DNA of 64,000 nucleotides. Source: Escherichia coli (GTDB lineage Bacteria; Pseudomonadota; Gammaproteobacteria; Enterobacterales; Enterobacteriaceae). Below, in pieces: positions 21,717-45,107 of this stretch. A model generated the notes under the pieces. It searched no databases. It was not told where the DNA came from and was given only the letters and a program-made list of their open reading frames with translations. The stretch is from the NCBI RefSeq assembly GCF_013122565.1, contig NZ_CP053258.1, one strand, 5' to 3'. Both the position numbers and the translations under genes were made by a program. Numbering within the stretch: position 1 is the stretch's first letter; the number at the start of each line of letters is the position of its first letter.

Positions 21717-23570
21717 ATGAGACGATTTCTGACGACGCTGATGATACTCCTGGTCGTGCTGGTGGCCGGGTTATCTGCGTTAGTGTTGCTGGTGAATCCG
21801 AATGATTTCCGCGACTATATGGTCAAGCAAGTTGCTGCACGTAGCGGTTATCAATTGCAGCTCGACGGGCCACTGCGTTGGCACGTCTGGCCGCAACTTA
21901 GTATCCTCTCCGGGCGAATGTCTCTCACCGCCCAGGGCGCGAGCCAGCCACTGGTTCGCGCCGACAACATGCGTCTGGACGTGGCGCTTTTACCACTACT
22001 GAGTCATCAACTGAGCGTTAAGCAGGTGATGCTAAAAGGGGCAGTGATCCAACTGACGCCGCAGACGGAAGCGGTGCGCAGTGAAGACGCTCCGGTTGCA
22101 CCACGCGACAATACCTTGCCGGATCTGTCAGACGATCGCGGATGGTCGTTTGATATATCCAGTCTTAAGGTGGCGGACAGCGTTCTGGTGTTCCAGCATG
22201 AAGATGACGAGCAGGTGACAATCCGCAATATCCGCCTGCAAATGGAACAAGATCCCCAACATCGTGGCTCATTTGAGTTCTCCGGGCGGGTTAATCGCGA
22301 TCAGCGCGATCTCACGATATCCCTTAACGGTACGGTAGATGCTTCTGATTATCCGCATGATTTAACGGCGGCTATTGAACAAATTAACTGGCAGTTGCAG
22401 GGTGCCGATTTACCAAAACAAGGTATTCAGGGGCAAGGGAGTTTCCAGGCCCAGTGGCAGGAGTCACATAAACGCCTTTCATTTAACCAAATCAGCTTGA
22501 CCGCCAATGACAGTACGCTGAGCGGGCAAGCACAGGTCACGCTGACAGAGAAGCCGGAATGGCAGCTGAGACTGCAATTCCCGCAACTGAATCTTGACAA
22601 CCTCATCCCGCTTAATGAAACCGCGAATGGTGAAAACGGTGCCGCGCAGCAGGGGCAGAGCCAATCAACGTTGCCGCGCCCGGTTATTTCTTCGCGTATT
22701 GATGAACCGGCCTATCAGGGACTGCAAGGCTTTACGGCTGATATTTTGTTGCAAGCCAGTAACGTGCGCTGGCGCGGAATGAATTTTACAGATGTTGCCA
22801 CGCAAATGACCAACAAGTCGGGTTTGCTGGAAATTACTCAACTGCAGGGCAAGCTTAACGGTGGACAGGTTTCACTGCCGGGCACGCTGGACGCGACATC
22901 AATAAATCCGCGGATAAACTTCCAGCCACGGCTGGAAAACGTTGAGATTGGTACCATACTGAAGGCGTTTAACTATCCGATTTCGTTGACCGGAAAGATG
23001 TCACTGGCTGGTGATTTCTCCGGTGCTGACATAGATGCTGACGCATTCCGCCATAACTGGCAAGGACAGGCACATGTCGAAATGGCCGATACGCGCATGG
23101 AAGGGATGAACTTCCAGCAGATGATTCAGCAAGCGGTAGAACGTAATGGTGGTGATGTGAAGGCCGCTGAAAACTTCGATAACGTGACGCGTCTTGACCG
23201 CTTTACCACCGATTTGACGTTGAAGGATGGCATCGTGACGTTAAACGACATGCAAGGTCAATCGCCTGTGCTGGCGTTGACAGGGGAAGGCATATTGAAT
23301 CTGGCAGATCAAACCTGCGACACCCAGTTTGATATTCGGGTCGTGGGTGGCTGGAACGGGGAAAGTAAACTGATTGATTTCCTGAAAGAAACGCCAGTAC
23401 CGCTGCGGGTTTATGGCAACTGGCAGCAACTCAATTACAGTCTGCAAGTGGATCAGTTACTGCGCAAACATCTACAGGACGAAGCGAAACGTCGTCTGAA
23501 TGACTGGGCCGAGCGGAATAAAGATTCCCGCAATGGCAAAGATGTGAAGAAGTTGCTGGAGAAGATGTAG
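21717..23570 (+). CDS. asmA: Outer-membrane assembly protein AsmA (617 aa)
   Basis: 617-aa ORF with an N-terminal signal anchor (MRRFLTTLMILLVVLVAGLSALVLLV); position downstream of dcd. Confidence 0.85.
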   Translation: MRRFLTTLMILLVVLVAGLSALVLLVNPNDFRDYMVKQVAARSGYQLQLDGPLRWHVWPQLSILSGRMSLTAQGASQPLVRADNMRLDVALLPLLSHQLSVKQVMLKGAVIQLTPQTEAVRSEDAPVAPRDNTLPDLSDDRGWSFDISSLKVADSVLVFQHEDDEQVTIRNIRLQMEQDPQHRGSFEFSGRVNRDQRDLTISLNGTVDASDYPHDLTAAIEQINWQLQGADLPKQGIQGQGSFQAQWQESHKRLSFNQISLTANDSTLSGQAQVTLTEKPEWQLRLQFPQLNLDNLIPLNETANGENGAAQQGQSQSTLPRPVISSRIDEPAYQGLQGFTADILLQASNVRWRGMNFTDVATQMTNKSGLLEITQLQGKLNGGQVSLPGTLDATSINPRINFQPRLENVEIGTILKAFNYPISLTGKMSLAGDFSGADIDADAFRHNWQGQAHVEMADTRMEGMNFQQMIQQAVERNGGDVKAAENFDNVTRLDRFTTDLTLKDGIVTLNDMQGQSPVLALTGEGILNLADQTCDTQFDIRVVGGWNGESKLIDFLKETPVPLRVYGNWQQLNYSLQVDQLLRKHLQDEAKRRLNDWAERNKDSRNGKDVKKLLEKM

Positions 23571-23587
23571 GTTACCAGGTGATCTGT

Positions 23588-23627
23588 CCTGTAGGCCTGA
23601 TAAGACGCGTAAAGCGTCGCATCAGGC
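23588..23627. repeat. REP (repetitive extragenic palindrome) element
   Basis: CCTGTAGGCCTGATAAGACGCGTAAAGCGTCGCATCAGGC, a typical E. coli REP imperfect palindrome. Confidence 0.7.
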
Positions 23628-23986
23628 AATCACGTAGATTACTTTCAGCAAAGATGAATCATCAGTAAAAGCAAGATATTTCCGCGAGGGGGTTGGTCCG
23701 GCTGTAAATCGCCGAATCGTTTCCTGTAGGCCGGGGCAGCCCACATGGATGTGGGCTGAGGGCGCGTTTTACAGGGATGTTACCTCGCGCCCGTACCCGA
23801 TAGCCGAAAGGAATAAGATGAGGGAACCGCGCTAGCGGCGATTTACCGCCGGGAGCCCGGGTTGCCAGGGTGGTGGCGATTGAGCCACCCTGGCACGTTC
23901 ACCGACTTGAGCGTTCCATAGTAGCGAGGAACATAAAGTGAACGGAACAGCCTTCAATGTCACATACTCTCCCGGTTGAACGAAAC

Positions 23987-24024
23987 GCCTGATGCGACGC
24001 TTTACGCGTCTTATCAGGCCTACA
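23987..24024. repeat. REP element, inverted copy of the REP at 23588..23627
   Basis: GCCTGATGCGACGCTTTACGCGTCTTATCAGGCCTACA is almost exactly the reverse complement of the upstream REP, so the two form an inverted pair around a ~360-bp core. Confidence 0.7.
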
Positions 24025-24029
24025 TGCCA

Positions 24030-25613
24030 TCACACCTCGTACTCCATCTCGCCATCCTTACGCAGCGGAATAATTTGCACCTTCTGCACGCGATGGCTTT
24101 CCACCTGCAACGTTTTAAGCAAATAATCCCCCACCTGAACTTCTTCGCCAGGTTTTGGAATACGCTGTAAATATTCCATCAACAGCCCGGCAATGGTGTG
24201 ATATTCACGTTTTTCATCCAGCGGCAGCGGCACATATTGCACCAGATCTTCCAGCGGCATATGACCATTCGCCGTCCAGGAACCGTCCGCATTCTTCTGA
24301 ATATCATGGCGGGCGTCGATCTCTTCCACTTCGTTCGGTAAGTTACCGGCAATGGTTTCAGTGACGTCACTTAATGTCACAATCCCTTCCACCGAGCCAA
24401 ACTCATCCACCACAAAAGCAAAGTGTGTGCGGGCATTACGGAACTGCTCCAGGGCAGGTAACAACGGCAAGGTTTCCGGGAACACCAGCGGCTGGCGAAT
24501 CAACACCCGCAGGTTGAGCGGTTCGCCGCGCAGAGACTGTTGTAGCAGGTCGATAACGTGAACAACACCGAGCAAATCTTCTGCGTCATCACCGTCGGTA
24601 ACCACCAGCCGCGTATGCTGATTTCGCTCCAGCAACTGGCGGATCTCGTCTTCCGGCGCGTTGAGATCGATATGCTCAATATCGTGGCGCGACGTCATAA
24701 TGCTGCTGACGGTACGCTGGTTAAGATTAAGTACCCGCTCAATCATCCGCCGTTCCTGCGGATTAAAGATCTGCTGGTTACCATGATCCACCAGCATGGA
24801 CGCGGTTTCGGCGTCCAGTTCCGCATCCTCTTTTTGCCCGCTAAGCAGGCGCATTACCGCTTCGGTAGTCCGCTGGCGCAGCGTCTGGTTAGCGGAAAGA
24901 AAACGTCGCCGGTTAAAGATAGCCAACTGATTGAGCGCCTCGATCATCACCGAGAAACCAATGGCAGCATACAGGTAGCCTTTCGGAATGACGAAGCCGA
25001 AACCTTCTGCCACCAGGCTAAAGCCAATCATCAACAGGAAGCTTAAGCAGAGAATAACGATTGTCGGGTGACTGTTAACAAATTGCGTTAACGGCTTGCT
25101 GGCCATCAACATCAGGCTGATAGCGATAACCACGGCGGCCATCATGACCACTAAATGGTCGACCATCCCGACGGCGGTAATCACTGAGTCGAGTGAGAAG
25201 ATGGCGTCCAGTACCACAATTTGTGTCACCACCCCCCAGAACTTCGCACCTTTGCGTTGTGTGGGATTATTGCTGTCTTTCCCTTCCAGCCGTTCGTTCA
25301 GCTCCATCGTGGCTTTGAACAACAGGAAGAAACCACCAAACAGCATGATTAAGTCGCGGGCGCTAAAGGTAAACGAGCGGAAGCTGAACAGCGGTTGAGT
25401 CAGGGTGACCAGCCAGGAGATTGACGCCAGCAGTAACAGGCGCATTAACATCGCCAGCAGCAGCCCGGTAACCCGTGCGCGGTCGCGCTGCTTCGGCGGT
25501 AGTTTTTCGGCGAGGATGGCAATAAAGACCAGGTTATCAATGCCGAGGACCAGTTCGATCACAATCAGCGTGATTAACCCGGCCCAGATAGACGGATCGG
25601 CAATCCATTCCAT
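24030..25613 (-). CDS. yegH: TerC-family integral membrane protein with CBS/CorC domains, YegH (527 aa)
   Basis: Track ORF is 549 aa; I place the start at [21 protein letters not shown]..., giving 527 aa. N-terminal multi-TM region followed by a soluble C-terminal half. Confidence 0.8.
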
Positions 25614-26053
25614 AGTAAGTACAAAACCTATTCGTTGTATGACAAATGTCACAATTCGATCATGGATAAATCGGGGCAAAAATGCAATGTTGCAGCACTA
25701 TTTATCTCATATTATTTGAGGGTAATAACCTCACATTATCCCTGAATTAAAAGTGGTAATAATAAACATTATTTAAGAAATATCGCATGTGGAGACGCAA
25801 TATTAAATATTGTCAACCTAAAGAAACTCCTAAAAACCATATTGAATGACACTTAATATAATTCTTAAAAATAGCCAATTGCCGAATTGTTACCTTGCCT
25901 GCTATTCCGTTAGCTGTAACACTTCCTCCTGCATTATTGGAGAGCCAATATTCAATTACCATAATGTCACCTTATATTCGGAAGTTAATTTCCGCAATAA
26001 CCCTTTCTCATCAACGATTGTATGCAGAGAGGGTTTGAAAAATTAAGCTAAAT

Positions 26054-44849: not shown

Positions 44850-45047
44850 CGACAACGGTTGCCGGGTGCAGCGTAAAACGCCTTATCCATCCTACGGTTC
44901 TGTGCTCGGGACCTGTAGGCCTGATAAGACGCGTCAGCGTCGCATCAGGCACTGAATGCCGGATGCGGCGTGAACGCCTTATCCGTCCTACGTCTCTGTG
45001 CTCGGGACCTGTAGGCCTGATAAGACGCGTCAGCGTCGCATCAGGCA
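44850..45047. repeat. BIME/REP cluster: two direct ~70-bp copies separated by a PU-type REP
   Basis: CCTTATCC(A/G)TCCTACG...TGTGCTCGGGACCTGTAGGCCTGATAAGACGCGTCAGCGTCGCATCAGGC occurs twice, separated by GCCGGATGCGGCGTGAACGCCTTATCCG. Confidence 0.8.
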
Positions 45048-45107
45048 AAAAACGGCAACGAACACAACAAACACAGCCTCACCTGGCATCAAATTTATGA
45101 GGAAAAA

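Follow-up and report, generated by a model that had tools for sequence, protein, structure and literature searches.

What is the structured DNA that separates asmA from yegH in the Escherichia coli genome considered here: a mobile element, a non-coding RNA or a repeat of a known kind? In the window analysed, a stretch of 64,000 nucleotides from contig NZ_CP053258.1 (assembly GCF_013122565.1), the two genes are convergent (asmA on the + strand, ending at 23570; yegH on the - strand, ending at 24030) and leave a spacer of 459 bp (23571-24029). The original prediction, made from the letters alone, had likened this spacer to a miniature mobile insertion bounded by repetitive extragenic palindromes (REP), or to a structured RNA, rather than to a plain terminator region. 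We find that the core of the spacer is very probably a member of the TRIP1/RRS family of repeats. Our reading, to which we give a probability of roughly 0.8, is that it is a divergent paralogue at a locus unlisted in the published catalogue, and probably a weaker, hairpin-only obstacle to replication. The family itself is already known; what is new here is a member belonging to a subfamily devoid of the RRS G-quadruplex (G4), at a new locus. What remains of the original prediction is thus a repeated, insertion-polymorphic, structured non-coding element, which proves to be a published repeat, an outcome that had been set as a refutation, and not a REP-bounded mobile unit.

Rudd first described TRIP1 in 1999, and a survey by Li et al. 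(2024) listed it at five loci (1a, aqpZ-lysO; 1b, putP-efeU; 1c, dusC-mdtQ; 1d, alx-sstT; 1e, copA-ybaP) as a GC-rich element of 146-273 bp, with 62-65% GC and a very stable predicted 'double-Y' fold (PMC10888264). The 'replication risk sequence' (RRS) comes from the work of Pham, Cox, Goodman et al. (PMC10287960, PMC11194060, PMC13308219). TRIP1a and TRIP1c are RRS-lysO and RRS-dusC, respectively; TRIP1 and RRS are one element. We located both K-12 copies with a hidden Markov model (HMM) of the family, and the published G4 motif lies on the strand stated by the authors. The core of the asmA-yegH spacer (23680..23965, + strand) aligns over its full length with this HMM (nhmmer score 291.7) and is 85.7% identical to K-12 TRIP1a over 189 nt (blastn, E = 4e-54) and 85.2% identical to K-12 TRIP1c (E = 2e-52). 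Alignment to TRIP1a/c by profile or covariance model also did better than with shuffled sequence. The comparison with other E. coli genomes that had been proposed for 23640-23986 was run by megablast against 5,426 complete genomes, and this segment proved to be multi-copy across the species, with 16,104 places in 5,418 genomes (median 3 and maximum 7 per genome). Paralogues are found at putP-efeU, yohP-dusC and proX-ygaY. Neither asmA-yegH nor proX-ygaY is named in the TRIP1/RRS papers, and these two loci extend the published TRIP1 catalogue. The core thus lies outside the five type-specific loci, a list that describes the known members and is no criterion of the family, and it has the properties by which TRIP1 is described, being GC-rich with a stable double-Y fold that is common to its relatives and backed by covariation.

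The asmA-yegH copy and TRIP1 share homologous sequence, a GC-rich composition and the same predicted multi-branch ('double-Y') fold; both are intergenic, lie a few tens of bases 3' of a stop codon and vary between strains in presence and orientation. They differ in that the asmA-yegH copy is only ~78-86% identical to TRIP1a, which over most of the length is below the 84-94% found among the published types, and in its subfamily-specific hairpin H4 and 3' stem P6 (CACGTTCAC...GTGAACGGAAC, versus GCGCTCCT...AGGAGCGCAAC in TRIP1). Taken by itself the asmA-yegH copy is nothing unusual: a published repeat has here one more paralogue, and a dispensable one.

The family extends well beyond E. coli. 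One pattern scan of 100,044 species genomes, followed by confirmation with nhmmer (70 matches confirmed), revealed copies in Escherichia, Enterobacter, Kluyvera, Pluralibacter, Pseudocitrobacter, Lelliottia, Huaxiibacter and Silvania; scan matches in high-GC actinobacteria and alphaproteobacteria did not match the family HMM and were taken as chance. An alignment of 52 sequences from the eight genera splits into three subfamilies. Type i is the kind of RRS and TRIP1a-c and carries GGGGGTGCAGGGGGCGGCGG. Type ii, the kind found in the window, is common to the proX-ygaY copy and to copies from Enterobacter, Lelliottia, Huaxiibacter and Silvania. Type iii has diverged strongly; in Kluyvera, Pseudocitrobacter and Enterobacter sp. 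ENT03 its copies are placed head-to-head with a type-i neighbour. In such units the two modules face in opposite directions at a distance of 48-120 bp, and each DNA strand carries one 'sense' module (L022 1867-2134(-)/2182-2439(+); L061 5316-5581/5635-5890; L040 2427-2677/2769-3037; L020 5871-6120/6213-6479; and all seven copies of ENT03, L026-L032). Kluyvera cryocrescens and ENT03 each have 7 copies. No position conserved across genera was seen, a single Kluyvera copy adjoining putP. One K. cryocrescens copy (L037 1170-1458) has a tandem GGGGTGCA expansion at the G4 site, which generates a canonical four-run G-quadruplex motif, GGGGGTGCAGGGGTGCAGGGGTGCAGGGG. A metagenomic contig (L021, JAFAEO010000008.1; 1-141, 225-323 and 431-690) combines a yegH fragment with two TRIP1c-like copies and is probably an assembly chimera.

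The two-strand structure prediction that had been suggested gave folds far more stable than chance. The predicted folding energy of the core as single-stranded DNA (ssDNA) is -71.2 kcal/mol for the + strand (z = -6.1) and -65.9 kcal/mol for the - strand (z = -5.1), and as RNA the z-scores are -4.4 and -3.5, respectively; in none of these four runs did any of 200 shuffles match the observed energy. Four paralogues share a common fold in which 24 of 77 pairs are compensated. For the 52 sequences, the structure was projected from the fold of the window copy and compared with controls in which the pairing partners were slid by 1-3 columns and with 500 shuffles. Paired cells amount to 84.0%, against 38-44% in the slid controls, and both sides have changed in 35 pairs (284 cells), against a shuffled mean of 88 cells, a number of changes that none of the 500 shuffles reached. 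The window copy and its counterpart in Enterobacter asburiae alone differ by seven compensated pairs. Therefore the family has a conserved fold of ~270 nt that is kept by compensatory substitutions. The compensatory changes found in type ii across genera imply selection on the family, not necessarily at asmA-yegH.

Which nucleic acid is under selection is less easily read from the fold. G-U and A-C cells number 28 and 39 in the core helices and 134 and 104 overall, so that the wobble excess typical of RNA is not seen, and an assignment of the strand by the G-U/A-C ratio was dropped for want of asymmetry. The loop motifs (GNAA, GNA, GGA) favour the + strand: the loop of hairpin H1, GGAUG, is invariant, the GGA of the H2 loop is kept in 49 of 52 sequences, and these near-invariant loops and the CC-GNAA-GG and CGC-GNA-GCG loops are all on one strand. 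Since both strands fold, wobble pairs are not in excess, the spacer has no promoter or terminator consensus and orientation is variable, we counted these features in favour of a function at the DNA level.

The spacer is made up of a resident REP, a unit of ~340 bp (a 52-bp leader and the 286-bp core) and an exact inverted second REP. The leader (23628..23679, + strand) is AT-rich, with 31% GC, and accompanies the core in the type-ii subfamily; blocks of it are common to the upstream flanks of the Enterobacter, Lelliottia and Huaxiibacter type-ii copies. The core has 59% GC, and its 5' domain (23704..23846, + strand; helices 1-10) has 62%. This domain is closed by a stem (GUAAAUCGCC, 23704-23713, with GGCGAUUUAC, 23837-23846) in which several adjacent pairs have changed on both sides, and its pairs at alignment columns 30-35/169-174 are kept in all or all but one of the 52 sequences. 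Within it, two adjacent hairpins with GGA loops (23731..23799, + strand) comprise H1 (23737-23758, loop CAUGGAUG) and H2 (23760-23792, loop ACAGGGAUGU). They are followed, in 23804..23838 on the same strand, by a CC-GNAA-GG tetraloop hairpin (23804-23811) and the CCGC-GNNA-GCGG hairpin H3 (23827-23838); the tetraloop letter N varies (GAAA, GUAA, GGAA, GCAA) while G..AA is kept, and helix 10 shows 99.5% pairing, 2 of its pairs having changed on both sides. The original prediction had described a segment of the core, TCCTGTAGGCC at 23722-23732, as a partial third REP. This likeness is just an 11-nt match, and the segment belongs to a conserved part of the repeat core, present as TTCCTGNAGGCCGGGGC in 48 of the 52 family members.

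The 3' part of the core contains the hairpin H4 (23864..23894, + strand; arms GCCAGGGUGGUGG and CCACCCUGGC, loop CGAUUGAG), which sits where the RRS-type copies have their G-quadruplex motif, and whose arms compensate between subfamilies (GGGGGCGGC/GCCGCCCCC, GGGGGAGGA/UCCUCCCCC, CAGGGUGG/CCACCCUG). The two hairpins singled out at the outset are indeed both present, at 23737-23758 and 23863-23895. H4 is followed by the stem P6 (23896..23944, + strand), formed by CGUUCAC (23896-23902) and GUGAACG (23938-23944); this stem, helix 13 of the alignment, shows 96.7% pairing, with both sides changed in 3 of its pairs, and encloses a fast-evolving hairpin (23903-23937). In ENT03 the seven copies are >97% identical over ~230 nt, and their P6-enclosed hairpin of ~35 nt exists in five versions, with two near-identical pairs and the rest unrelated. 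A guide-like role for hairpin 23903-23937 was rejected: its longest match to its own flanks (600 bp) is 7-10 nt, as expected by chance, and the mean longest exact match to the flanks of other loci is 6.5-8.5 nt.

The reading of the core as a replication obstacle starts from what is known of its relatives. RRS-lysO and RRS-dusC, as lagging-strand template, fold once unwound and block lagging-strand synthesis, and the post-replication ssDNA gap that results is loaded with SSB and RecA (PMC10287960, PMC11194060, PMC13308219). RRS are reported as conditionally essential elements of genome topology, an action ascribed to the G-quadruplex. According to a 2026 preprint, the complementary RRS strand, which lacks the G4, nevertheless triggers lagging-strand gaps in ~66% of encounters in vitro, so that a hairpin-only member of the family could plausibly act likewise. 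At asmA-yegH, the GC skew of the window (+0.036), the co-orientation of asmA, dcd and udk, and synteny lead us to infer, rather than from a mapped origin, that the + (sense) strand of the core is the lagging-strand template. Its polarity relative to replication would then match that of RRS-lysO and RRS-dusC in K-12. The predicted ssDNA stability is -71.2 kcal/mol for the window copy versus -83.9 kcal/mol for RRS-lysO, or ~85%, with the same architecture. Given this polarity and this stability, the core is probably a weaker replication obstacle: once unwound, the lagging-strand template would fold as ssDNA and impede lagging-strand synthesis, as a hairpin-only obstacle less strong than its RRS relatives. 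We put the ability of the asmA-yegH copy to do so at about even odds. That such an activity has been selected at this locus is rather doubtful, because in most E. coli the copy is gone, inverted or truncated.

The window copy and its RRS relatives have a lagging-strand-template polarity and a comparable predicted ssDNA stability in common, yet several observations weigh against this reading. The RRS G-quadruplex has no counterpart in the core, which lacks GGGGGTGCAGGGGGCGGCGG: no canonical G3+ x4 pattern was found in it, and its maximum G4Hunter score is 1.04, versus 1.84 for RRS and 1.8-2.0 across RRS-type copies, and the RRS authors regard the G4 motif as the main determinant. The asmA-yegH copy is, moreover, dispensable and mostly degraded in E. 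coli. By K-12 coordinates (asmA-yegH spacer, 2,139,486-2,139,758; RRS-dusC, ~2,229,115-2,229,377), it lies ~90 kb on the terminus side of RRS-dusC, away from the symmetric positions ~650 kb either side of dif that characterize the RRS pair, and is thus an extra copy. For the near-invariant GGA loops and the GNRA-type loop, no role is known in an obstacle that works by DNA thermodynamics alone. Finally, a function that depends strictly on polarity sits uneasily with the finding that strains differ in orientation at one and the same site, both at asmA-yegH and at dusC.

At the dusC locus, the RRS/TRIP1c element is inverted between strains that have the same flanking genes (L076 1616-1878(-), versus L005/L006 2477-2751(+) and L048 6082-6354(+)), and the two orientation alleles differ in sequence. 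In strains with the opposite orientation, barring some other rearrangement of the region, the leading-strand template would carry the G4 strand of RRS-dusC. Nor is orientation relative to the flanking genes conserved, TRIP1a being antisense to both of its neighbours and TRIP1c sense to dusC. Such in-place orientation polymorphism bears on the polarity dependence claimed for RRS. RRS belong to a larger and older family, whose conserved features are the ~270-nt paired fold and the two GGA loops, not the G4. The natural subfamily without G4, of which the window holds an intact example in its native polarity, lends itself directly to testing which of the two, G4 or fold, is decisive.

The site itself is highly polymorphic. 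The arrangement of the window (REP, leader, core, inverted REP) was found in 39 of the 5,426 E. coli genomes. The common full-length allele (L080 type; ~1,400 genomes) has the core inverted, one REP and a different leader, and its changes disrupt the structure: H3 is broken and the H2 loop no longer has its GGA. Two truncated alleles, the 273-bp K-12 type and a 292-bp type, are internal deletions of the inverted form and together represent roughly 45% of genomes; an empty site of 67 bp with a single REP accounts for roughly 5%, and a RelE/ParE-HTH (helix-turn-helix) toxin-antitoxin pair in the spacer (O157:H7 and others) for roughly 12%, these three percentages being approximations from an evenly spaced sample of ranked matches. 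In the latter allele, seen for instance in O157:H7 NE 1169-1 (L082 403-1021), the RelE/ParE toxin and HTH antitoxin genes replace both the REP and the repeat. The asmA-yegH site is a general insertion hot-spot. The state of K-12, which the original prediction had left unsaid, is different from that of the window: its spacer is 273 bp long and holds a single REP and a core that is truncated and faces the other way. A simple recent inversion between the REPs, leading from the window allele to the common allele or back, was rejected, since the cores differ by ~4% and REP plus core by ~8%, the leaders are different and the common allele has no second REP. At proX-ygaY, K-12 has a two-REP bacterial interspersed mosaic element (BIME; L078 2626-2816) where strain FDAARGOS_1289 has a type-ii TRIP1-like element (L003 2441-2892).

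This diversity raises the most serious alternative, namely that the asmA-yegH copy is a functionless relic, an old copy that drifts neutrally in a tolerant 3' intergenic hot-spot and whose intact fold merely reflects a limited time of decay. The rarity of the window type beside inverted, truncated, empty or replaced alleles fits this view, as does the broken H3 and lost H2 GGA of the common full-length allele. On the other hand, two divergent Escherichia lineages share the intact arrangement in collinear form (96.3% and 92.7% identity over ~1 kb), which indicates that it is old and not a recent accident, and type ii keeps its fold by compensatory changes across genera. We consider a relic less probable than a copy of the kind proposed above.

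A second alternative places the function in RNA. The Rfam scan of the spacer, another check proposed at the outset, gave no family at its gathering score, the REP arms yielding only weak naRNA4 matches. Its best match, over the two GGA hairpins (23731..23799), is TwoAYGGAY (RF01731; 29.1 bits, E = 0.031), below the gathering score of 43. K-12 TRIP1a reaches 30.6 bits over the whole 168-position model, and the type-iii copy of Pseudocitrobacter faecalis (L022 2218-2281) scores 49.2 bits (E = 3e-7), above the threshold. This same copy matches the family HMM over nearly its full length (E = 2e-13), which argues that TRIP1/RRS belongs with TwoAYGGAY. On sequence and structure-model grounds, the TRIP1/RRS family thus appears related to this Rfam motif. 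TwoAYGGAY is the best Rfam match for the window copy, K-12 TRIP1a and the Pseudocitrobacter copy alike, and the family copies have its two adjacent hairpins with A-N-GGA-Y loops and its long closing stem. In the window copy, loop 1 (AUGGAU) fits the motif, loop 2 (AGGGAU) has R for Y, and the closing stems are present. The loops ACAUGGAUGU and UACAGGGAUGU match the CsrA consensus obtained by in vitro selection (SELEX), RUACARGGAUGU. The family element differs from TwoAYGGAY in an additional 3' domain of ~100 nt (H4, P6 and the variable hairpin) and in its GNRA and H3 hairpins, which are outside the Rfam model. TwoAYGGAY has been described as a probable RNA (Weinberg et al. 2010) and proposed as a CsrA-binding small RNA (Gardner & Eldai 2015; PMC4333381), whereas experiments on the TRIP1/RRS family are at the DNA level only. 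We found no link between RRS/TRIP1 and TwoAYGGAY in the literature searched, and the RRS papers do not mention CsrA.

If the element acted as RNA, read-through from asmA, with no terminator in between, would yield a 3'-UTR (untranslated region) with a TwoAYGGAY-like fold whose two GGA loops bind a CsrA dimer. The element would then serve as a CsrA sponge or decoy or would stabilise the 3' end, and the effect of the relatives on DNA replication would be a by-product of a stable fold. The conservation of H1 GGAUG and H2 GGA extends to the most divergent subfamily, the CC-GNAA-GG loop is on the + strand only, and this strand folds slightly better than the other as RNA; these features, the RF01731 scores and the published CsrA proposal are all in its favour. 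They are opposed by the lack of a G-U excess over A-C in the helices, by the lack of a promoter or terminator consensus in the spacer and of a conserved terminator 3' of the family end, by the variable orientation relative to neighbouring genes and by the loss or truncation of the copy in most E. coli. In the CsrA CLIP-seq (crosslinking and immunoprecipitation sequencing) table of Potts 2017, dusC, ybjE and asmA are marked 'No' in all peak columns, a weak negative in that peaks are assigned per gene and the K-12 asmA-yegH copy is truncated. On balance we regard an RNA-level role as unlikely.

The RRS/TRIP1 and TwoAYGGAY literatures would describe one superfamily with incompatible mechanisms. 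A bolder proposal, for which the natural G4-less subfamily and the head-to-head pairs would be the evidence, holds that TRIP1/RRS, including the G4-less copy, forms part of a TwoAYGGAY superfamily in which selection acts on a strand-specific fold that offers two GGA loops to a dimeric protein. This protein would be CsrA if the fold is made of RNA, or an ssDNA-binding factor if it forms on the unwound lagging-strand template; the G4 would be an embellishment of one subfamily, and gaps would result from the fold together with the protein that binds it. We consider this proposal, taken as a whole, unlikely.

The third and weakest alternative is the one first proposed for the spacer, a miniature mobile element bounded by REPs. 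The core cassette would be mobilised by the two REPs acting as terminal inverted repeats, for instance as substrates of REP-associated tyrosine transposases (RAYT). The asmA coding sequence (21717..23570, + strand; an open reading frame (ORF) of 617 aa, annotated as asmA in the 100%-identical record NZ_CP051158.1) and that of yegH (24030..25679, - strand; an ORF of 549 aa, annotated as yegH/TerC family) do enclose the announced pair of inverted REPs. The arms (23573-23627 and 23987-24041) are 55 nt long and 89% complementary, with a perfect stretch of 38 nt (23590-23627 and 23987-24024). The left arm (23573..23627, + strand) contains the REP hairpin 23595-23627 and gives a weak naRNA4/REP match. 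In the right arm (23987..24041, - strand), 33 nt repeat the left REP exactly in inverted orientation; next comes CTACATGCCA, just as it does in the empty allele, and the outer end of the arm overlaps the yegH stop codon. No promoter or terminator consensus was found by a scan of the spacer, and, as had been noted, no ORF of >=60 aa is confined to it, the largest having 33-44 aa.

These arms are ordinary REPs, near-identical copies of which lie elsewhere in the window (44912-44951 and 45008-45048); these two, 95% identical to the spacer REP and ~96 bp apart, probably form a BIME. The spacer arms are likewise standard REPs inverted as in a BIME, and their sequence recurs both in the window and in the empty allele. 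They are, however, 359 bp apart instead of being joined by a short linker, they are of one REP type (an exact inverted copy) instead of alternating types, and the core between them is unrelated to REP, so that the spacer lacks the alternating REPs and short conserved linkers of a BIME. The left REP is the resident one, being the sole spacer content of the empty allele L079. The window allele exceeds the empty one by exactly 392 bp, which lie between two ATCAGGC heptamers, a difference that fits an insertion as well as a deletion. Concerted evolution or pairing of the two arms was rejected, since in Escherichia sp. E1V33 they differ at 2 positions.

Several properties are those expected of a mobile element: the family is multi-copy (up to 7 places per E. 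coli genome, 7 in K. cryocrescens and 7 in ENT03), its loci vary from genus to genus, a single site may be occupied or empty and the element there may face either way, the arms are perfect inverted repeats over 38 nt, and proX-ygaY holds either the element or a BIME. The arms themselves, however, do not behave as the ends of such an element. Among the 51 of the 52 aligned copies that have enough flanking sequence, flanking inverted repeats were found in only 3, all of them window-type asmA-yegH alleles, and in none of the other 48. The left REP is present in the empty allele and hence outside any insert, the common full-length allele has one REP only, the E1V33 arms have not been kept identical, and no transposase is nearby. 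No target-site duplications were found around the 51 copies, the sole direct-repeat match being 13 nt at non-equivalent positions beside one copy. A REP-bounded mobile element is therefore highly improbable. The TRIP1/RRS family has therefore moved between loci, as its loci differ by genus and its orientation differs in place at asmA-yegH and dusC.

Other mobile or RNA-based candidates were dropped as well. These were IS621/IS110 bridge RNA, IscB/TnpB guide RNAs, a retron, a group II intron remnant and type I toxin-antitoxin systems (hok, ldr, sib); Rfam gave no match, no enzyme is encoded nearby, no small ORF is conserved, and paralogues differ by single-base indels. In E. coli AF57, an IS110-family 'RNA-guided transposase' is inserted within a TRIP1/RRS copy at a recombinant dusC-aqpZ junction (L007 2574-3947). 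The insertion point lies in the hairpin-2 loop, ACAAGGAT^GTTACC, and each of the two junctions has an AT dinucleotide; an IS110-type recombinase thus appears to target this conserved loop, as IS621 does REPs.

Beyond the spacer, in K-12, the JUMPstart RNA (RF01707) is found upstream of wza (L001 3423-3461) with 57.3 bits, above its gathering score, as expected by the colanic-acid cluster. Further along the window, 48001-64000 has a GC content of 0.34-0.37, versus 0.485 for the whole window, and a strongly positive GC skew; this segment looks like a horizontally acquired polysaccharide cluster of the O-antigen type, downstream of the colanic-acid genes.

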